The position numbers and the translations under genes are program-made. Below are positions 705-16,376 of a DNA stretch of 64,000 nucleotides, one piece after another. This DNA comes from Candidatus Nomurabacteria bacterium (GTDB lineage Bacteria > Patescibacteriota > Minisyncoccia > Phycocordibacterales > UBA918). The notes under the pieces were generated by a model. The model saw nothing but the letters and a program-made list of their open reading frames with translations, did not search any database and had not been told where the DNA came from. The stretch lies in the NCBI GenBank assembly GCA_023898565.1, contig CP060228.1, positions 624,594 to 688,593 of the forward strand, given 5' to 3'. The first letter of the stretch is position 1. Every line of letters begins with the position of its first letter.

Positions 705-1133
705 CTACGCATTGAGCTTTACGGTTTGGTTTGGCCTGGCGCGTTCCTTTTCGACCAACTCACTGAATGGGACGGCCATCATTGGAGATTTGATGTGTCG
801 CACGGCAGTGCGATGTAGGAACTCGTCTTGTGGCATGGCGAAGCCAATTCTGATTGAGCCAAGCTCTTTTGGGGTTAAGGTAATCGTCAAGAGACTTTGA
901 TGGCTGTATGACTTTACATCGATGTGTTCGATGTTTAGTGTGTGGGGATCGTAGATAATGTTGAGATGTTTAATTTGATTTTCGGTGAGCGGATACTGCA
1001 GGAGGAAGTTTACAGTTTCGCTCGTTCCGCGATGTAGAGTTAAATCGTGGAAGAAGTTGAAGCGGCGAACGTAGGGGCTCGCGAGGAGGTTATCGTCAGT
1101 GACGAAAAGAGAATAGAAACGAATCATAGGCAT
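705..1133 (-). CDS. hypothetical protein (142 aa)
   Basis: ORF-track ORF with no recognisable motif. A TTGACA-16-TAGCAT-like promoter sits ~100 nt upstream on the minus strand (~1241-1275). Confidence 0.4.
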   Translation of the reverse strand: MPMIRFYSLFVTDDNLLASPYVRRFNFFHDLTLHRGTSETVNFLLQYPLTENQIKHLNIIYDPHTLNIEHIDVKSYSHQSLLTITLTPKELGSIRIGFAMPQDEFLHRTAVRHIKSPMMAVPFSELVEKERARPNQTVKLNA

Positions 1134-1558
1134 TGGGCGCTGTGCGCGATTAACGCTGATAATTCGCTCAACGTTGTCTTGCGTATGAAGAATCGTGAAA
1201 TTCTGGGGAAGCTACTGCGTGCAGTCTGGTGACGGTTCGCTATACGACTAGTTTTATGCTATACCGACTGCAAAAGTTGTCAAGAGATAGAAAACGCTGT
1301 TTTGCACTGGTTTTTACACCCAGTTTTGCACGACTTATATACACACTTGTGCACAGTTTATACACAGAAGTACCTTGAAATAAGGTTTTTTGTGTAGTAT
1401 TGACTAATTTCCCTGGTGTGAGAACCTATATGTAGGTTTGCGGGGTGGTGAAGTATCTTAATACTTATGCTCGAGGCTACGAGCAAAGCCCGCAAGCCGA
1501 AGCTCTACGTTGTACAAAGTAAAAGCGCCCTGGAGGGGGCGCTTTTACGTATTGATAT

Positions 1559-2723: not shown

Positions 2724-3974
2724 TTATTTAAGTTTTGAACGGCGAAGGAAAGCTGGTACTGCACCCCAGTCATCGTCATCGTCATCGTCTGCTGCATCAA
2801 TTGGCTTTGGATCTCGTTTTGGAGCAGGAGTAGGCTCTGCTTTGGTTGCGGGTGTAGGAGCAACGTCTACTTTCGGCGCCTCCCGCTTTGGAAGGGAATT
2901 AAAGATGCGGCCACGAACAGGTTCGCTGTCTTCCTCTTCCTTTTCTTCTTCTCGTGCTCGTGGCTCAGGAGCGCTTGGAGCACGTCGCGCAATACTATAA
3001 CTACCGCTACCGTCTGATTCTTCAGGGAATCCGGTTGCGATCACCGTAACCTTGAGCTCATTCTTTTTTAGTTTTTCATCCTTGATAGCACCAAAAATAA
3101 CGCGAGCTTGTGGATCGATTGATTCAGTAATTACACGAGCAGCATCTTGAATTTCGAGCATTCCTAGGTCATCTCCGCCAGCGATAGCAAAGAGAACACC
3201 CTTTGCTCCAGTGATTGACACTTCAAGGAGAGGAGAGTTGATAGCCGCGCGAGCAGCTTCTTCAGCTCGCTTTTCTCCAGATGATACACCGACGCCCATC
3301 AGTGCTGATCCGGCATTTTCCATAACAGAACGAATGTCAGCAAAGTCAACGTTGATGATACCTGGCATGGTGATGAGGTCTGAGATGCCTTCTACCGCTT
3401 GCTTTAGAATGTTGTCGCACTGCTCAAACGCATTTCTCACTGTAGTCTCCTTATCAACAATCGCTAGCAAACGATCGTTTGGAATAATGATAAGTGCGTC
3501 TACTTCTTGCTTTAGCTCTTCAATACCTTGAAGGGCAAGACGCATACGCTCTTGTCCTTCAAACAGAAATGGTTTGGTGACTACGCCAACAGTGAGTGCT
3601 CCGCTGTCGCGAGCAATCTTGGCGACTACGGGTGCTGCTCCGGTACCGGTGCCGCCACCCATACCCCCAGTAATGAAGATCATGTCTGAACCCTTGATTG
3701 AGTTATTGATTTCCTCACGGGTTTCTTCCGCTGCACGCCGCCCCATGTCTGGATTTCCGCCAGCGCCGAGGCCACGAGTCAAATTCTTGCCGATGTGAAT
3801 TTTTTTCTTAGCAAGCGAATGATGCAGGTCCTGAGCGTCGCTGTTTATTGCAATAAATTCAACACCTTTCACTTTCGATGCCACCATGTGATTCACGGCG
3901 TTGCCGCCTGAGCCGCCGACACCAACTACGCGAATGCGTGCGAATGACTCTACGTCTGATCTAATTTGTTCCAT
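2724..3974 (-). CDS. ftsZ: cell division GTPase FtsZ with an acidic poly-Asp C-terminal tail
   Basis: [15 protein letters not shown] and the tubulin signature [13 protein letters not shown]. It lies downstream of ftsA. Confidence 0.95.
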
Positions 3975-5279: not shown

Positions 5280-5696
5280 CTATGAAATATTGAACGCTTT
5301 AAGGAACTTACGCTCGAGTGTATCCATTGTATCGCCATGGTCATGGCCTTTCAAATGGAGGCAGCCGTGGATAAATAGAAAAGCAACGTATCCCTCCTTC
5401 GAGAGATCAAATTTATGAGCTTCTTTATCGGCTACTTTAGGGCAGATGAAGATTTCGCCAGTTTGCTCATCGAGGGGGAACGAAAGAACGTTGGGGGTAT
5501 AGGTTTTCTTTCGGTAGGAAATATTAAGTGCAGCAGCACGGGCCTTTCCAACAAACATAAGCGACAGCTCGTATTTTTTGCCAAGAATTTTATTTTTTAT
5601 CTCCTCATACGGTAGTTTGGCAGGGTAGGTTTTGACGGTGCTCTGAACTGAAAACGTTTCCATAAGTGTGGTCATTATACATGGCTTCAGATACAA
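5280..5696 (-). CDS. ybeY: rRNA maturation endoribonuclease YbeY
   Basis: Zinc motif HGCLHLKGHDH matches the YbeY H-x3-H-x5-H signature. Its stop is 2 nt from the ftsA start. Confidence 0.85.
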   Translation of the reverse strand: MYLKPCIMTTLMETFSVQSTVKTYPAKLPYEEIKNKILGKKYELSLMFVGKARAAALNISYRKKTYTPNVLSFPLDEQTGEIFICPKVADKEAHKFDLSKEGYVAFLFIHGCLHLKGHDHGDTMDTLERKFLKAFNIS

Positions 5697-5737
5697 AAAC
5701 AGCCGTGTTTTTACACGGCTGTTTTGGAATAATAGTC

Positions 5738-5983
5738 TTATCGACGACGTCCACGAAATTCTTGTACCTTTCCGAGCTTTACGAGCTTCTCGTACACTTC
5801 GCGCTTTTCAAGCTTCTTAAGCTTAGCAGTGCGTTGTACGTTCTTGCTTTTAGTACGAGTGAAATATCGGCCACCGCGTACCTTCGGAATGATCCCAGCC
5901 CCTTGTACGCGCTTTGTGAAGCGACGGATGACATTGGCGCTGCTCTCGTTATTATTCTTTTCTACTTCAACATTGGTTGCCAT
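5738..5983 (-). CDS. rpsU: 30S ribosomal protein bS21
   Basis: From the internal Met: MATNVEVEKNNNESSANVIRRFTKRVQGAGIIPKVRGGRYFTRTKSKNVQRTAKLKKLEKR... is S21-like. The 56-aa N-terminal extension in the ORF track looks spurious. Confidence 0.75.
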   Translation of the reverse strand: MATNVEVEKNNNESSANVIRRFTKRVQGAGIIPKVRGGRYFTRTKSKNVQRTAKLKKLEKREVYEKLVKLGKVQEFRGRRR

Positions 5984-6026: not shown

Positions 6027-7202
6027 TTAGGCAGTAATGGCAGCCTTTCGCTTGAGGCGCTTAATGAGCGTCTCGTGGTCGATGTACTCTTGATTGCGCA
6101 GGTCCATATCGCGGAAAATAACGGTGTTCTCAACGAATTCCTTTTGGCCAATAATAAGTGTGTACTTTACGCCACGGGCTTCAGCTTCACGGAGTTGGGT
6201 AGAGAGTGAGTCGCTGGCGAGATTATGGAAAACAGGAACACCTGCTCTACGGAGTGAATCAATGAGCAGAAGACTGCGGATTTTTGGTCCAAAACCAAGC
6301 TGTACAACGAAGACAGCTGGTGTGGCTGGCTTTAAGCGTGGAGCACGGCTTGGTGCTTTGCTGTTTTTTAGTATCACGACGGCGCCCACAGCCGGCGTGC
6401 GGGTCTTGGTGGTGCGATAGACGAATTCATCAAACCGGCCACCGCGAGCGGTGAGTGGTACCTCTGTGCCCTCCTCGTTGGTTATATCAATTGAAAAAAT
6501 TGCGTCGGAGTAACACTCGTGGTGACCGAGCATTTTTGGATCAATCTCGTATGGTGTTTCGCTCATATCAAGATATTCGATTATTTCGCGGAAATGCTTC
6601 CGACTTGGATCGCTTAAGTATTCTAGCGGGTTAGGGCTACGAAAGGCGAGTTCGTGGTCTTCGGAAACGAGCTGTGACAGTGCTGCGAGCGGGTGCTCAC
6701 GCATGAGATCACGAGCCGCTGGCGGCATGGCGTCCATGCGTTTTTTAAGGAAGTTCGCGAGCTCGCGACTGTAGCGAGTAAGTGAGTCATTGTCTCCGAG
6801 TGAGTTAATGCGGACAGTGTGATCTACGTATCCGAGGTCGCTTACTAGGGCGCGAGTAGCATGAATAAGAATTGCCTCTGCGATACTGCGGTCTACGTTG
6901 AAGATGTGAAATGTCACGGCTGTTTCACCGGTTTCGGGAACCTGCTCAAATGAGTAGAGAAGTACAGGCTTTTCAAGTGCATGCAGCTTTTCATCACAGT
7001 AGGTTGCTACGCCAGAGCTCAGTAGTCCATGATGAGCATCAAAATTTCGGTTTGAATCATTGACTGAGTGAATCATCACCTTTTCACACTGTTTGCACTC
7101 AGGAGCTTTGCGTAGCTGGTCGATAGTCTGGAAGCCAAAATGCTCGGCAGTGTGATTTGCGACTTTGAGAAACTCCGTTGGTGAAAGTTGTGACATATGC
7201 AA
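6027..7202 (-). CDS. hisS: histidyl-tRNA synthetase-like class II aaRS with degenerate motifs 1 and 2
   Basis: Aligns to E. coli HisRS over HGLL, INSLGD (cf LNSIGS), TARGGRFDEFV (motif 3, cf AGGRYDGLV), TPAVGAVV and the C-terminal anticodon-binding domain VFVVQLG...LIIGQKEF. RPEGT and FRHERPQ are not recognisable. Confidence 0.75.
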   Translation of the reverse strand: MHMSQLSPTEFLKVANHTAEHFGFQTIDQLRKAPECKQCEKVMIHSVNDSNRNFDAHHGLLSSGVATYCDEKLHALEKPVLLYSFEQVPETGETAVTFHIFNVDRSIAEAILIHATRALVSDLGYVDHTVRINSLGDNDSLTRYSRELANFLKKRMDAMPPAARDLMREHPLAALSQLVSEDHELAFRSPNPLEYLSDPSRKHFREIIEYLDMSETPYEIDPKMLGHHECYSDAIFSIDITNEEGTEVPLTARGGRFDEFVYRTTKTRTPAVGAVVILKNSKAPSRAPRLKPATPAVFVVQLGFGPKIRSLLLIDSLRRAGVPVFHNLASDSLSTQLREAEARGVKYTLIIGQKEFVENTVIFRDMDLRNQEYIDHETLIKRLKRKAAITA

Positions 7203-9634: not shown

Positions 9635-10741
9635 TTACGCGTTGCCTTCCTTGAATGAAAGGGTCATCTTCTGTTCAGATGGCTCGAAGAGCGTAATCTT
9701 GAACTTGTAGACATTACCGAGTGAAAGAGCAGCCTTGAGCTTCTCTTCAGTTTCAAATTCTGAAACGTGAACGAGACCTGCTACACCTTCTTCGATTGAT
9801 GCAAGTGCACCGTGCTTGTTGTACTTAATCACAACTGCGTCTACTACCTGGTCCTTCTGGTACTTCTTACCAGCTGTTACCCATGGGTTTTCTTTAAGCT
9901 GCTTGATTGAGAGTGAGATCTTGTCATCCTTCACTTCAATCACCTTTACGCTTACCTTATCACCCACCTTGTAGAGCGCCTTGGTGTCTTCTACGAGACC
10001 CCAGTCGAGTTCAGAGATGTGTACGAGACCTTCAAGACCTGGTTCGAGCTTAACGAATACACCAAAGTCTACAGCGCCAGTAACTTCACCTTCTACGACG
10101 TTACCAACTTCGTACTTGTTTACCTTCTCTTCCTTTTCCTGCTTTTCTTCAAGCCCCTTCTCAGAGAAGATAAGCTTGTGTTCTTTAGGATCAGCCGTGA
10201 TCATTACTACTGAAAGGTGCTTACCAACGAGTTCGTTGAGCGCAGTAAGGATCTTGTCCTTGTCGCCATCAGTAACGCGTGGGTAATTTTCAGCTGAAAG
10301 CTGTGATGCAGGGAGGAATCCCTGGATGCCCTGCCAGTCGATGATAAGACCGCCTTTGTTGGCTTCCTTCACCTCGAGGCTAAGAACAGTAGCGTTCTTA
10401 ACAGCTGCTTCGGCATCAGCCCAGATGAGTGCCTGACGAGCTTCCTTGAGTGAGAGCTCAATGTAGCCATCTTCGTTGTCGGTAGTTACTACCTTAGCGT
10501 CGATGCTGTCGCCTACATTCACCTTGCGAAGAATATCGCGGGCGTTCATGTATTCACGACCATAAATAAGACCAGTACCAAATGGGGTAACGTCGATGTA
10601 CACGCGAGCGCGTCCAATCGCTGATACGACACCTGATACGATTTCTCCATCCTTTGGAGCAGCTGGTGTTTCGGCCAAAACCTTGTCCATCACACCTGAA
10701 GCGACAGCAGCGCTGTCGCTGGATTTTCCAAATCCAAACAT
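9635..10741 (-). CDS. rpsA: 30S ribosomal protein S1, short form with 4 S1 domains
   Basis: Repeated S1/OB motifs, for example GEVTGAVDFGVFVKLEPGLEGLVHISEL. Confidence 0.9.
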   Translation of the reverse strand: MFGFGKSSDSAAVASGVMDKVLAETPAAPKDGEIVSGVVSAIGRARVYIDVTPFGTGLIYGREYMNARDILRKVNVGDSIDAKVVTTDNEDGYIELSLKEARQALIWADAEAAVKNATVLSLEVKEANKGGLIIDWQGIQGFLPASQLSAENYPRVTDGDKDKILTALNELVGKHLSVVMITADPKEHKLIFSEKGLEEKQEKEEKVNKYEVGNVVEGEVTGAVDFGVFVKLEPGLEGLVHISELDWGLVEDTKALYKVGDKVSVKVIEVKDDKISLSIKQLKENPWVTAGKKYQKDQVVDAVVIKYNKHGALASIEEGVAGLVHVSEFETEEKLKAALSLGNVYKFKITLFEPSEQKMTLSFKEGNA

Positions 10742-10908
10742 TGTATTTCTTTGTTATTTCCGACGACACGCGTCCGCGCAACTGTTGCTCGTGGCCATGT
10801 CCATGAGCGCGGGGTTAAACGTGTGTCGCTAGAAGCTATTAATTACCTAAAAGGTGTGCAAAATATAGCAGAACGTAGGGAATTGTCGAGGGTGCGTGAG
10901 TCAGAAAG

Positions 10909-11001
10909 CCGAGCCGCCTCCAGTTTTTCACACGCTCCGATGTTTGCCGAGTAGCTTGGGCGCACATTCTCCGCGGACGCTCAAAACTGGAGGCGGCTCG
11001 G
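10909..11001. repeat. conserved ~93-nt hairpin element, copy A: a 19-bp perfect outer stem enclosing a conserved core
   Basis: Stem CCGAGCCGCCTCCAGTTTT / AAAACTGGAGGCGGCTCGG. The core begins TCACACGCTCCGATGTTT and ends CTCCGCGGACGCTCA, identical to copy B at 12365-12453 while the outer stems differ. Confidence 0.6.
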
Positions 11002-11008
11002 TTCGGAC

Positions 11009-11040
11009 AAAAAAGAGCGCGATACTTGCGTATCGCGCTC
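11009..11040 (-). terminator. intrinsic terminator (minus strand) of the 11065..11436 unit
   Basis: Minus sense: GAGCGCGATAC-GCAA-GTATCGCGCTC followed by TTTTTTG. Confidence 0.65.
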
Positions 11041-11064
11041 AAAGCAGAAGAACAGATGAAGTTT

Positions 11065-11436
11065 TTAGACGAGCTCAAATCGGGTCGGTTCGGACCGCCG
11101 CAAGTTGCGGCGATTGCATCGCTGATTGCGACTGTTGGATTCGTGCGCACGCTTTGTCCAGTGGTGGAGCGTGTTGCGTTCGATAGACCAAAGGCGAGCC
11201 TCAAGCCCGTTTTCGATCATGCGAACTTCCTTCTTTCGAGCACAGCTTGAGCCGCTGAAGCTCGGTTCACGAACTTCCTTGCCGGCCACCACTTCAGTCG
11301 TGATGGCCTCGACAGGCTTGGCCGGGTGACGCTTCTTTTTGAGCGTCACCCGAGCCCGATTTTTCGGATTCAGGCGGAGAACTTCCGGCATGTGTTGCTG
11401 AAGGGCGGGGTCAGTGCTGTAGAAGGTGGTGTACAT
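11065..11436 (-). CDS. hypothetical basic protein (123 aa) with a consensus promoter and SD
   Basis: Lys/Arg-rich, no recognisable domain. It is preceded on the minus strand by AGGAGA-5nt-ATG and a TTGACA-16-TATAAT promoter. An antisense 65-aa ORF (11056-11250, +) overlaps it. Confidence 0.45.
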   Translation of the reverse strand: MYTTFYSTDPALQQHMPEVLRLNPKNRARVTLKKKRHPAKPVEAITTEVVAGKEVREPSFSGSSCARKKEVRMIENGLEARLWSIERNTLHHWTKRAHESNSRNQRCNRRNLRRSEPTRFELV

Positions 11437-11481
11437 CTTCGTCTCCTGTGGTATGAGCTATGGAACAAATTGATTTTTATT

Positions 11482-11509
11482 ATTATACACAAAATTTACA
11501 TATTGTCAA
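11482..11509 (-). promoter_or_regulatory. consensus sigma70 promoter (TTGACA-16 nt-TATAAT) on the minus strand
   Basis: Minus-sense TTGACAATATGTAAATTTTGTGTATAAT. TSS predicted ~11475, about 40 nt upstream of the ATG at 11436. Confidence 0.6.
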
Positions 11510-11542
11510 TACTAATATATAAAAATAGTGATGTTTTGCATA

Positions 11543-11574
11543 GAAAAAGCCCTGCACACGTGGTGTGCAGGGCT
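11543..11574 (-). terminator. intrinsic terminator (minus strand) ending the GC-rich island transcript
   Basis: Minus sense: AGCCCTGCACAC-C-ACGTGTGCAGGGCT followed by TTTTT. Confidence 0.6.
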
Positions 11575-11579
11575 GGTCC

Positions 11580-12340
11580 AGGTTTCTCTCATCAGGCAGC
11601 TAGGGCCATGTCATGGAGCCGTCCTCCAGTTTGGTCCCTGCATCAAACAGCAGGGCGTCATTTTCTGTCACTGCGCCGACGATGGCGCTTATCCGGAATA
11701 GAACTTGCTCATGGAGACTCACTCCTGTTGGCGGGTTCACGGGGAGGCGCTCCCGCGGCGAGACTCATCTAGAGTTCGCGGCGGGAGCAGGATTGACGGC
11801 CGATTGCCGAATTGCCGGGCCTATGAGAAGGCGCGGCAGCGGCGAGCGAGGCCGTCAGAGGTAGCACATGGCGCACACTTCATCCGTGCGCCATATACCA
11901 GGCCGGACACCGGGGCTAGGAAGCGCCGGCGACCTTGGTAGCGGTGGCGGTGGTCAGCAGGTCGAAAAAAACGTTCTCTTGTGCGCCTTGCGGCGGATCG
12001 GTCAGATGCTTCATGGTGCTTCTCCTTTTCCCTTGCGGGAGTTGTATGCTCGCGCTGGCCATCGTGGCGAGTGCGAGCGGTTGAAAACCTAAACTATTTT
12101 GTTCTGAAAGATCTCATACCCTACGGGGCGGGGAAGTACACATTGTGGCGCAAACTGCAGTCTGATTAGTCAAACTCATGCAGGACTAGAGAAGTCTCTC
12201 TAGAAAACATGGGTCGACAGCCGAGACGTAGTCTCAAGCACAATATGTAGTTCTACCACGCGCCCCGTAGGGGGTTTCGTGTTCGCGCGAGTAATACTCA
12301 GCGAGCGAAAACTTATAAAAGGATAGCATACATAAATTAT
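11580..12340 (-). other. GC-rich (~62% GC) ORF-poor island of ~760 nt, bracketed on the minus strand by a promoter-like site (~12320-12350) and the 11543-11574 terminator; candidate structured RNA or micro-ORF locus
   Basis: Only short overlapping Arg-rich ORFs on either strand. Many local hairpins (CTAGAGA-AGTC-TCTCTAG; GAGAC-GUA-GTCTC). A 12-bp long-range helix CCCTACGGGGCG (12118-12129) pairs with CGCCCCGTAGGG (12262-12273). Flanking DNA is ~47% GC. Confidence 0.35.
11906..12014 (-). CDS. 36-aa micro-ORF with a strong SD (MKHLTDPPQGAQENVFFDLLTTATATKVAGAS), below the ORF-track size cutoff
   Basis: Minus-sense AAGGAGAAGCACC-ATG and a TAG stop; it lies inside the GC island. Confidence 0.2.
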
Positions 12341-12364
12341 TTGTCAAGGGTTTTGTGTCTTATC

Positions 12365-12453
12365 CTGGCGCGGCTAATTCCTCACACGCTCCGATGTTTT
12401 CAGAGACACTCTGGCACTTTCTCCCCGCGGACGCTCAGAATTAGCCGCGCCAG
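12365..12453. repeat. conserved ~89-nt hairpin element, copy B: a 16-bp perfect outer stem with the same core ends as copy A
   Basis: Stem CTGGCGCGGCTAATTC / GAATTAGCCGCGCCAG. The core ends TCACACGCTCCGATGTTT and CTCCCCGCGGACGCTCA match copy A; the variable middle forms the hairpin CAGAG-ACA-CTCTG. Confidence 0.6.
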
Positions 12454-12526
12454 AGGGACTACCACGCATAGTCGCTGCTTCTCTGACTGTCGCACGCAGT
12501 GGGTCTGGTTTGCGCAGGTTGCTGGT

Positions 12527-12569
12527 CGGGCAGAAATTTTGGCAGGCGGAGCCCCAAAATTTCCGCCCG
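12527..12569 (+). promoter_or_regulatory. 16-bp hairpin in the leader of the MBL-hydrolase gene
   Basis: CGGGCAGAAATTTTGG-CAGGCGGAGCC-CCAAAATTTCCGCCCG. A second small hairpin, CGGTA-TACT-TACCG, ends 3 nt before the ATG at 12599. Confidence 0.4.
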
Positions 12570-12598
12570 CGGCACCTTTACGGTATACTTACCGCATT

Positions 12599-13219
12599 AT
12601 GGTCATTACATATCACGGTGGTCAGTGTTTTAAAGTTTCGTTTGGTGACACGACCTTGGCTTTTAACCCAATTTCCAAAAAATCCAAACTTAGTCCAGTT
12701 AAGTTCGGTTCAGACGCTGCCTTTGTGTCGCTCTGGCACGAGGATTTTAATGGTGTAGATCAAGTAGCCCATGGTGCTAAGCAGCCGTTTGTGGTTGATG
12801 GTCCGGGTGAATACGAAATCGGCCAAGTAGTAGCGCATGGTTTTGGCGTCAAAACTATGTATGATAAGGAAGAAGCGTACAATACGATTTTTCAAGTAAA
12901 GCTCGAGGATATCAATATGGTATTTCTTGGTGCGCTCAGCGAGCCAGAGATTGACCCAAAGATTCTGAGTGAATTTGGTGATATTGATATTCTTTTTGTC
13001 CCAATTGGCGGCGGTGATGTGCTTGAGGCGCCACAGGCGTCTAAGCTTGGTGTGAAGCTCGAAGCGAAGCTGGTGATTCCAATGCACTACAATGACACAG
13101 CGCTTAAAGCTTTTCTTAAGGAAGAAAGCAAGGACGGATTAAAGCCAGTAGATAAACTCACTGTCAAAAAGAAGGACGTTCAGGCAATGTCTGGTGATGT
13201 GGTGGTATTAAAGGCATAG
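12599..13219 (+). CDS. metal-dependent hydrolase, MBL (beta-lactamase) fold
   Basis: MVITYHGGQCFKVSFGDTTLAFNP...DILFVPIGG resembles the UPF0173/YtkL-like MBL-fold family. The ORF-track start at 12341 is a TTG extension across the repeat element, so I trimmed it to the ATG at 12599. Confidence 0.7.
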   Translation: MVITYHGGQCFKVSFGDTTLAFNPISKKSKLSPVKFGSDAAFVSLWHEDFNGVDQVAHGAKQPFVVDGPGEYEIGQVVAHGFGVKTMYDKEEAYNTIFQVKLEDINMVFLGALSEPEIDPKILSEFGDIDILFVPIGGGDVLEAPQASKLGVKLEAKLVIPMHYNDTALKAFLKEESKDGLKPVDKLTVKKKDVQAMSGDVVVLKA

Positions 13220-16214: not shown

Positions 16215-16226
16215 CACGCACTTGTG

Positions 16227-16352
16227 CCATCGGGCGGACTAATTTTCAGGCACGAATCAAGTTCTCCGCTCGCTTTCCGGTTTTAATAAAGAGGCTTCGC
16301 CTCTTGACAAAAACCGGGCTCCGCGAGGCCCGAAAATTAGTTCGTCCGATGG
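16227..16352 (+). ncRNA. candidate structured RNA element downstream of gyrA: a 21-bp closing helix with G-U pairs around two internal hairpins
   Basis: CCATCGGGCGGACTAATTTTC ... GAAAATTAGTTCGTCCGATGG with two G-U wobbles. Internal hairpins are CCGGTTTT..AAAACCGG and AGAGGC-TTC-GCCTCT. An intrinsic terminator follows at 16377-16409. Confidence 0.35.
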
Positions 16353-16376
16353 CTGAAGATGTATTGAGGGAGAAAT

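Follow-up and report, generated by a model that had tools for sequence, protein, structure and literature searches.

A family of intergenic hairpin elements in Patescibacteria with a nearly invariant core and a compensated stem

The 64,000-nt stretch of DNA analysed here (the window) covers positions 624,594 to 688,593 of contig CP060228.1 from a Candidatus Nomurabacteria bacterium (assembly GCA_023898565.1). It contains two hairpins, copy A and copy B, which share a core, differ in their stems and stand on either side of a GC-rich island near the ribosomal protein S1 gene rpsA. The locus raises the question of what such a pair is, a regulatory RNA, a recombination site or part of a larger family, and on which strand it acts. 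Both hairpins had been described in an earlier note on this DNA, and their positions and perfect stems were borne out by re-reading the sequence and by an inverted-repeat check (Table 1). The arms of copy A are 19 nt long, 100% complementary and spaced by 55 nt. Those of copy B (12365-12380/12438-12453) are 16 nt long, also 100% complementary and spaced by 57 nt, and the minus-strand stem of this copy has 17 bp once the closing U.G pair (12437/12381) is counted. The 18-mer TCACACGCTCCGATGTTT, noted earlier as an identical core start, occurred exactly twice in the 64 kb, with 0.08 occurrences expected by chance, and no third occurrence was found in the window with up to three mismatches. The 3′ core block CGCGGACGCTCA was likewise exact in copies A and B. 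Compared with shuffled sequences, the two copies reached folding z values of -5.1 to -6.8 on both strands. A second strain of the window organism (98.8% identity) carried both copies, with a single nucleotide polymorphism in copy B that disrupts one pair of the outer stem.

Further copies were sought, in one genome per species, with a two-block pattern taken from the shared core. Of the 34 loci obtained, 28 had the core together with flanking complementary arms. All 28 were located in metagenome-assembled genomes (MAGs) of Patescibacteria (10 MAGs), labelled Nomurabacteria, Parcubacteria, Paceibacteria or 'Saccharibacteria', and several of these held three to seven copies. The remaining six matches, about the number expected by chance, came from G+C-rich contigs outside the Candidate Phyla Radiation (CPR), with odd spacing and without stems. 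A looser pattern applied to metagenomes gave 75 more loci; about 14 metagenome matches in G+C-rich non-CPR contigs were without stems and were discarded as chance. A covariance-model search, which the earlier note had proposed, was run with a model built from the first 30 copies and recovered further copies with core substitutions. Pattern scans and covariance model together yielded 87 distinct copies, a family and not a private pair, all from Patescibacteria MAGs or metagenomes. Judged from exact-pattern matches, the copy number was about 10 per ~1-Mb genome. No true family copies were found in IMG/VR viral contigs, GenBank phages or PLSDB plasmids; one inspected viral-contig match, L035, was G+C-rich, had no stems and was rejected. 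In agreement with the impression that the core was no known riboswitch or ribozyme, Rfam gave no match at gathering thresholds, and a search of positions 10700-12700 against Rfam 15 at E <= 10 with permissive filters gave nothing over either copy. Full-text literature searches for words of the core, or for repeats and RNA motifs of Patescibacteria, brought up no description of the element. The copies form an apparently undescribed family of non-coding hairpin elements of ~105-110 nt, located between housekeeping genes of Patescibacteria.

Several simple identities were considered and rejected. A minus-strand mini-ORF (open reading frame) of 18 codons, TTG...TGA, fitted some copies and its stop was not conserved. 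On the plus strand an ATG frame was present in some copies, and in copy A the conserved ATG is followed by an early stop. The middle of the core varies between 26 and 30 nt across copies, which breaks coding frames. A role of the stem as a guide RNA against another locus was dismissed, neither window stem having a match elsewhere in the window with up to three mismatches. The TIGR-Tas and box C/D systems were set aside as tandem arrays with other motifs.

On its folding strand, the minus strand in the window, the element consists of the 5′ arm of an outer helix (P1), GA, GCGUCCG, an apical cap, CGGA-G-CGU, GUGA and the 3′ arm of P1. The inner part of the 5′ arm is often AUAUUUU. GCGUCCG and CGGA-G-CGU form P2, a nearly invariant 7-bp helix with a bulged G, and GA opposite GUGA forms an asymmetric, purine-rich internal loop. 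The cap starts with CG GGGR..ARUGCY, continues with ~15 variable nt and ends with RA CAU; its length is kept (mostly 29 variable nt), and no consistently conserved helix was seen within it. P1 has a median length of 21 bp with a sharp mode at 21-23 bp, and alignment of close paralogues extends it to 24-25 bp in many copies. From the paralogue alignments came the stem consensus (CC)TATCCCCTCAYNACATAYTTY; outside it the flanks show no relation. Since the stems share a family consensus, they are not random, but diverged and compensated versions of an ancestral stem. The earlier description of two stems that differ in sequence and stay perfect was right about the pairing and wrong in so far as it implied stems free of common ancestry. 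The GC-rich stems of the window copies are among the most diverged of the family and have drifted with compensation from the consensus common to most members. The accompanying argument, that copies of a shared DNA repeat would be alike in sequence, does not hold for a dispersed multi-copy family with a stem consensus and genome-specific subfamilies.

In the alignment of the 87 sequences, P1 cells were paired in 95.3% of cases and 16 of the 16 modelled P1 pairs showed double compensatory changes. Compensatory cells numbered 470, compared with 117.5+-9.9 after shuffling; none of 500 shuffles reached the observed values. Sliding the P1 partners by one to three columns lowered the pairing to ~44%. 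With all modelled stem pairs covarying, the element is structure-constrained and not a chance repeat, as had been proposed from the two window copies. P2 is nearly invariant and therefore weakly tested by covariation. Its pair 25-66 is C-G in 76 copies and U.G in 11, pair 21-72 is G.U in 84, A-U in two and G-C in one, and pair 23-69 is G-C in 56, G.U in three, A-U in two and A.C in 26 of the 87.

The strand of action, which had seemed ambiguous from the window alone, was resolved by wobble bias and alignment folding. Counted over full-length P1 stems on the minus-strand reading, 74 non-Watson-Crick positions were of the G.U type and 18 of the A.C type (binomial p=3e-9), beside 1531 Watson-Crick pairs; an A.C-type position on this reading is a G.U on the opposite strand. 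RNAalifold energies were better on the minus-strand reading in all three subfamilies (-28.5/-20.9, -28.2/-16.3 and -23.8/-7.7). Both results place the folding constraint on the minus (GAGCGUCCGCGG...) strand. Mutation alone cannot yield such an asymmetry, so one specific strand folds in single-stranded form, as RNA or as single-stranded DNA (ssDNA). The G.U:A.C bias was 10:4 where a gene ended within 40 nt in sense direction, 20:7 where it did so in antisense direction and 44:7 otherwise. As the bias is independent of the direction of the neighbouring gene, folding inside host mRNAs is not what is selected. The strand-specific folding constraint belongs to the element, not to a host mRNA.

The genomic setting was read from pieces of 8-14 kb around the copies, a few percent of each genome. 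All copies were intergenic. Their neighbours were ordinary core genes such as rpsB, rpmE, rplY, rpsP, dnaA/rnpA, rpoD, tyrS, truB and the RNase R gene, among others, and most copies stood alone between such housekeeping genes. Orientation was random, with 33 sense and 35 antisense copies relative to gene starts and 31 and 38 relative to gene ends. Relative to local GC skew the split was 25:32, or 9:18 at strongly skewed loci, neither being significant, and a link between orientation and replication direction was rejected. Typically, the preceding stop codon or terminator is a few tens of nt away (median 33-59 nt) and the next start codon follows at ~100 nt. Strong sigma-70-like sites beside the elements pointed away in 31 cases and inward in nine. 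Promoter-like sites were found inward at 3 and 6 of 72 and outward at 17 and 14; the -35 box of an outward promoter was mostly located 5-25 nt from the base of the stem, on either side. Inward sites were not enriched on either strand, so that an own promoter of the element was rejected, and neither a conserved promoter upstream of P1 nor a terminator after it was seen across the copies. The element is also no intrinsic terminator, because no U tract follows P1 (no T run in the DNA) and separate canonical terminators are present beside copy A and the copies or spacers in L027, L067 and L112; its loop of 55-59 nt does not fit either. An intrinsic terminator directly precedes copy A and the copy in L027.

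The promoter and hairpin motifs reported around the window copies were recovered by consensus scans, which placed the minus-strand hexamers at 10889-10862 (TCGACA-16-TATATT) and 12347-12320 (TTGACA-16-TATCCT) and identified the hairpins as terminators at 11040-11015 and 11574-11548. Read along the minus strand, the order is copy B, TTGACA-16-TATCCT, ~750 nt of GC-rich DNA, a terminator, a promoter with 12/12 consensus positions, an orphan ORF of 123 aa, a second terminator, copy A, TCGACA-16-TATATT and finally the rpsA leader and gene.

Some copies were clustered. L062 had three abreast in the spacer between the gene for an MBL-fold hydrolase and rpsA (MBL|rpsA), L022 had two and a truncated third, L024 had three within 4 kb and L081 had two adjacent ones; neighbouring copies in these four loci were often mutually inverted. 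Truncated or decayed copies were found in L022 (~6975-7025), L019 (7743) and L062 (b and c). A half-core near L022, considered as an isolated piece, was identified as the truncated third copy. Genes bracketed by two copies in L098, L100 and L064 were rejected as partner genes; they encode unrelated proteins that are not HUH enzymes, one with a DEDD-type exonuclease domain, and one is a spurious ORF.

Related genomes differed in the presence of the element. The gene order gyrA-x-MBL|rpsA-pth, with MBL and rpsA diverging, was kept in relatives with an S1 protein 89-92% identical, and no family copy was present in the MBL|rpsA spacers (584-1134 nt) of the relatives L112-L116. The same spacer was filled in the window, in L062 (S1 87%; three copies) and in L067, where a single copy has the same distance and orientation upstream of the rpsA -35 box as copy A. 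Filled and empty orthologous spacers that differ by ~110-120 nt were found in the pairs L003/L068, L024/L047 and L056/L092, which are too diverged to reveal junctions. Where both genomes held a copy in the same spacer, the orientation was the same in four cases and opposite in four, the latter including L014/L069, L023/L104 and L070/L048, and the stems were unrelated. Identity in the variable columns was 0.61 within genomes versus 0.47 between genomes. The value of 0.78 in JBBTRC01, a MAG from Hainich well H41, suggests a recent burst of copies, and that of 0.43 among the seven copies of JBDLTL01 suggests old lineages. Core identity was 96-97% everywhere, although the scan demanded an exact core, which biases this comparison among diverged copies.

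Two further observations concern the distribution. In three distantly related genomes (dnaA ~72% DNA identity) a family copy was present in the spacer by the dnaA start (L015 4477-4563, between dnaA and rnpA; L055 1727-1813; L076 487-573), in differing orientations; such sharing points either to a hot spot for insertion or to copies retained close to the presumed origin region. L116 also contained another hairpin family, a shorter one, at 1003-1071 (minus strand), 1132-1202 (plus strand), 5632-5712 and ~5740-5790, and among the loci compared it was seen in that genome only. It has the core GAACAYUYCCCC.AAAAU..UGUGCA.. and stems of 6-28 bp, and the last of these members lies ~30 nt upstream of the rpsA -35 box. 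With the main family it shares only the stem-adjacent words UUUUGA.. and ..GCGUGUGA(A/G)AAA.

A family that is multi-copy, intergenic in either orientation, kept in pairing by compensation under a one-strand constraint, and gained and lost between related genomes may well be a non-autonomous hairpin replicator of the REPIN/ERIC kind, a reading given about even confidence here. Each genome would contain a small population of replicators, as with REPINs, which would spread through a strand-specific single-stranded intermediate, either ssDNA or an RNA copy. A putative conserved trans-acting protein or enzyme would recognise this intermediate at the invariant module of internal loop and P2, while P1 would provide a double-stranded handle of fixed length. 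The places where copies would survive are the gaps that separate a stop codon or terminator from the promoter that follows; both window copies have such a location. The replicator is favoured because it accounts for the random orientation, the clustering, the truncated and decayed copies and the genome-specific subfamilies, for the spacer turnover with independent re-occupation of the same promoter-upstream spacers, and for a strand-specific constraint that is indifferent to the transcriptional context. The window copies are then best read as two old, independently diverged members, and not as regulators of rpsA or the MBL gene or as the ends of the GC-rich island.

Several results weigh against a replicator. 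The ~45 flanking proteins included no transposase, RAYT, integrase or reverse transcriptase beside any copy, a weak argument since they cover only a small part (a few percent) of each genome, and three subfamilies showed neither a target-site duplication nor a conserved target word. The stem termini drift with compensation, unlike classical terminal inverted repeats, which are read by a transposase on duplex DNA. Identity among the seven JBDLTL01 copies is as low as 43% in the variable columns, yet all of them have an exact core and a paired stem; this needs either rapid copy turnover or selection per locus, the latter favouring a host function, in a comparison biased by the exact-core scan. 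The rpsA, dnaA, rplY|pfkB and rpsB spacers are occupied in distantly related genomes, which could reflect retention instead of repeated insertion. A broader and tentative proposal is that the element is the RNA or folded-ssDNA partner of a conserved Patescibacteria protein, as part of a new hairpin-dependent mobilisation system or as a structured RNA selected per locus. In the former case an enzyme would read the invariant loop and bulged-helix module plus a ~22-bp duplex of any sequence, and in the latter a multi-copy RNA would be kept upstream of core promoters such as those of rpsA and dnaA. Either form, if true, would be a new CPR-specific nucleic-acid/protein system.

The main rival holds that the copies are multi-copy, stand-alone small structured RNAs (~105 nt, minus strand) that act as protein-binding scaffolds. 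The GA/GUGA loop with P2 would form a site resembling a kink-turn (k-turn), and the ~22-bp P1 would be a double-stranded RNA handle, for example for RNase III or a protein with a double-stranded RNA-binding domain. This is possible, if doubtful. Wobble tolerance and folding energy in the three subfamilies agree on one strand, P2 pairs 21-72 and 25-66 are compatible with the minus strand only, and protein-binding RNAs usually show such a combination of an invariant internal loop and bulged helix with freely covarying helices next to them. The rival also explains conservation per copy better than a replicator does, as old diverged copies keep exact cores, and P1 is held near two helical turns. 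However, promoter and terminator are not conserved around P1, inward promoter-like sites are rare, several copies (copy A, L027) lie directly behind terminators, and the genes from which read-through could come stand in random orientation to the copies. Presence and absence between close relatives and the A.C state of pair 23-69 in 26 of 87 copies are further difficulties. The likeness to a k-turn consists of the asymmetric internal loop, the tandem G.A/A.G pairs that could form next to P1 (5′-GA / 5′-..UGU-GA) and the flanking canonical helix P2. The loop nevertheless appears to depart from the canonical k-turn rule, since a 3-nt bulge would place G opposite G beside the G.A pairs and the predicted G.U pair leaves a 2-nt bulge only, and the related family in L116 has the loop words without an adjacent canonical stem. 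Read from the sequence, the k-turn likeness appears to be a resemblance only. A cis-acting RNA, that is, a riboswitch, leader or attenuator for rpsA on the minus strand or for a 65-aa ORF or the MBL gene on the plus strand, would suit the highly conserved core and the position of each window copy upstream of a gene on either strand. It is hardly credible and was ruled out by position, orientation and distribution: read along the minus strand, the two copies precede the -35 box and fall outside the transcript; the 87 copies are randomly oriented to functionally unrelated downstream genes; and close relatives, with an 89-92% identical S1, are without the element. The 65-aa ORF, moreover, has no family match and lies antisense to the 123-aa ORF, which has a consensus promoter and a terminator.

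Recognition as DNA was weighed in two forms. In duplex form the element would be a site just upstream of promoters, working in either orientation as a platform for a nucleoid or regulatory protein or as a transcriptional insulator. Its location fits, between a stop codon or terminator and an outward promoter close to the stem base; it contains two GAGCGT words 42 bp apart, ~four helical turns, and the window, L067 and L062 all have it upstream of the promoter of rpsA, where L116 has the related family. Such a site is nevertheless unlikely, as it explains neither the compensatory change over 21-25 bp nor the 4:1 strand bias of wobbles, and close relatives have the same promoters without the element. 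In folded form it would be an attC-like recombination site at the boundaries of mobile cassettes, the two window copies bracketing and mobilising the GC-rich island. This is very unlikely, although the two direct copies of the window enclose 1.36 kb of DNA specific to the lineage (an orphan ORF and a decayed ABM-monooxygenase remnant of 60-64% GC), copies cluster, and the strand-specific folding, the conserved unpaired bases and the stronger conservation of structure than of sequence recall attC, which is recognised in folded single-stranded form with unpaired bases as marks of identity. Integron attC sites carry the R″ (RYYYAAC) and R′ (GTTRRRY) cores at the stem base and vary at the top, whereas here the stem base is the most variable part. 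They form same-orientation arrays next to intI, whereas the present copies are scattered in both orientations, mostly solitary, among core genes (rpsB, rpmE, rplY, dnaA, rpoD, tyrS, truB) and often mutually inverted where they adjoin (L022, L062, L081, L024). No integrase was seen nearby, and L067 has the equivalent of copy A upstream of rpsA without the island. With an inverted conservation pattern and no arrays, a strict attC-like site was ruled out. The att-like or cassette-boundary role considered in the earlier note finds no support as a general trait, the copies being mostly solitary and the stem base being without a conserved recombination core; they flank lineage-specific DNA, and there is no sign of their having mobilised the island.

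Small palindromic intergenic repeats are already known as a kind (REP/REPIN, ERIC, Correia), and the replicator was compared with each. REPINs, in the work of Bertels and Rainey, are reportedly REP doublets that form hairpins and are mobilised by RAYT transposases. The family resembles them as a ~100-nt non-coding single long hairpin, intergenic in either orientation, with several to many copies per genome in genome-specific sequence clouds; in both, the hairpin is kept by compensatory change, probably acts single-stranded and has no coding capacity of its own. REPINs, however, conserve two inverted REP sequences at their ends around a variable middle, whereas here conservation is lowest at the ends and the centre hardly varies. 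No RAYT/HUH gene is linked to the present family, which has no sequence similarity to REPINs and a low copy number. The ERIC or IRU elements of Enterobacteriaceae are imperfect palindromes of 127 bp. They are likewise small and intergenic, occur in both orientations, are conserved across genera and maintain their pairing, with mobility rarely observed. ERICs are reported from transcribed regions and are conserved along the whole palindrome, whereas the present elements often lie between a terminator and the next promoter and conserve the asymmetric core alone, in another host phylum and without sequence similarity. Correia elements of Neisseria (NEMIS/CREE) and other bacterial MITEs (miniature transposable elements with inverted repeats) share the length of ~100-150 nt, inverted termini of 20-26 bp, the intergenic, promoter-adjacent location and the ability to form hairpins as RNA. 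In Correia elements the terminal inverted repeats are conserved and the target TA is duplicated, whereas the termini here vary with compensation and no duplication was seen. Like MITEs and other interspersed repeats, the family has inverted termini (21-25 bp, consensus as above), multiple copies and presence/absence polymorphism between related genomes; unlike them, it has no direct repeat flanking the stems in the three subfamilies. A parent element was not found: isolated half-cores were no commoner than chance in ~0.34 Mb, and no transposase was among the ~45 flanking proteins.

Patescibacteria make up a large share of bacterial diversity, with tiny genomes and very little non-coding DNA. 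To our knowledge, almost nothing is known of their non-coding elements. The present family is new in having no sequence relation to REP/REPIN, ERIC or Correia elements, and no such repeat has been described for the phylum in the searched literature. It is also new in reversing the usual pattern of conservation, with a drifting clamp around an invariant asymmetric centre. A core that is essentially invariant across orders, a 21-25-bp stem rewritten by compensation and a folding constraint on one strand make the element noteworthy. It would be either one of the clearest REPIN-like intragenomic replicators outside Proteobacteria or a new structured RNA with a protein partner. The family is a candidate entry for Rfam or a repeat library and a possible marker of spacer turnover in CPR genomes; evidence of a dedicated protein partner or of a discrete RNA would add to its interest.

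Table 1. Coordinates of the two hairpin copies and their parts in the window
Feature	Position	Strand	Remark
Copy A, whole element	10909..11001	-	covariance-model match 10912-10998, 89.9 bits
Copy A, P1 5′ arm on folding (minus) strand, 19 nt	10983..11001	-	100% complementary to 10909-10927
Copy A, internal loop 5′ side, GA on minus strand	10981..10982	-	invariant or near-invariant family-wide
Copy A, P2 5′ strand, GCGUCCG on minus strand	10974..10980	-	
Copy A, apical cap, ~34 nt	10940..10973	-	5′ part semi-conserved (CG GGGR..ARUGCY), remainder variable, near-constant length
Copy A, P2 3′ strand, CGGA-G-CGU on minus strand, bulged G	10932..10939	-	
Copy A, internal loop 3′ side, GUGA on minus strand	10928..10931	-	
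Copy A, P1 3′ arm	10909..10927	-	
Copy B, whole element	12365..12453	-	covariance-model match 12366-12452, 88.3 bits
Copy B, P1 5′ arm, 16 Watson-Crick pairs and closing U.G (12437 with 12381)	12437..12453	-	
Copy B, GA loop side (12435-12436) and P2 5′ strand (12428-12434)	12428..12436	-	
Copy B, apical cap with local hairpin CAGAG/CUCUG inside	12394..12427	-	
Copy B, P2 3′ strand (12386-12393) and GUGA loop side (12382-12385)	12382..12393	-	
Copy B, P1 3′ arm	12365..12381	-	

The DNA between copies A and B differed from the second strain by dozens of substitutions and indels. Its GC-rich stretch (11580-12290, 60-64% GC) is decaying foreign DNA. A contig from another sample (L122 150-434; compare L117) held an intact ABM-monooxygenase gene of 94 aa, of which the window retains only the last residues (…TTATATKVAGAS*), with homology to the window breaking off at ~11964. 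The 123-aa ORF (11065-11436, minus strand) encodes a very basic orphan protein; its sigma-70 promoter lies at 11509-11482 and its terminator is the one at 11040-11015. No Pfam match was found for it, and among 5.8 billion proteins it had no homologue but itself. The 65-aa plus-strand ORF overlaps it in antisense.

Other structured features were observed around the same genes. The rpsA leader of ~120-150 nt (window ~10742-10860, minus strand) contains a variable hairpin enclosed by a long-range stem, CGACACACG ... CGCGUGUCG. The leader is conserved upstream of rpsA across relatives (L112, L115, L116, L062, L067), had no Rfam match and is a candidate S1 autoregulatory leader. Directly after the gyrA stop, at 16221-16358, a large hairpin has 31-nt arms that are 84% complementary and a 76-nt loop with a small hairpin; no second copy was found in the window or the compared loci. 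In every relative a hairpin of 16-20 bp with a loop of 3-11 nt was located just upstream of the TATACT -10 box of the MBL-fold hydrolase gene (window 12527-12569; L112 5434-5474; L116 4883-4925; L062 ~3741-3781), differing in sequence with the pairing kept. The ATG ~9 nt after this -10 box suggests a leaderless or near-leaderless mRNA. Beside the MBL gene of L115/L114, at 5350-5454, an 18-bp inverted repeat encloses an A+T-rich loop of 69 nt, identical 19-25-nt words of which were present in L045 and L018; this may be another small repeat family.

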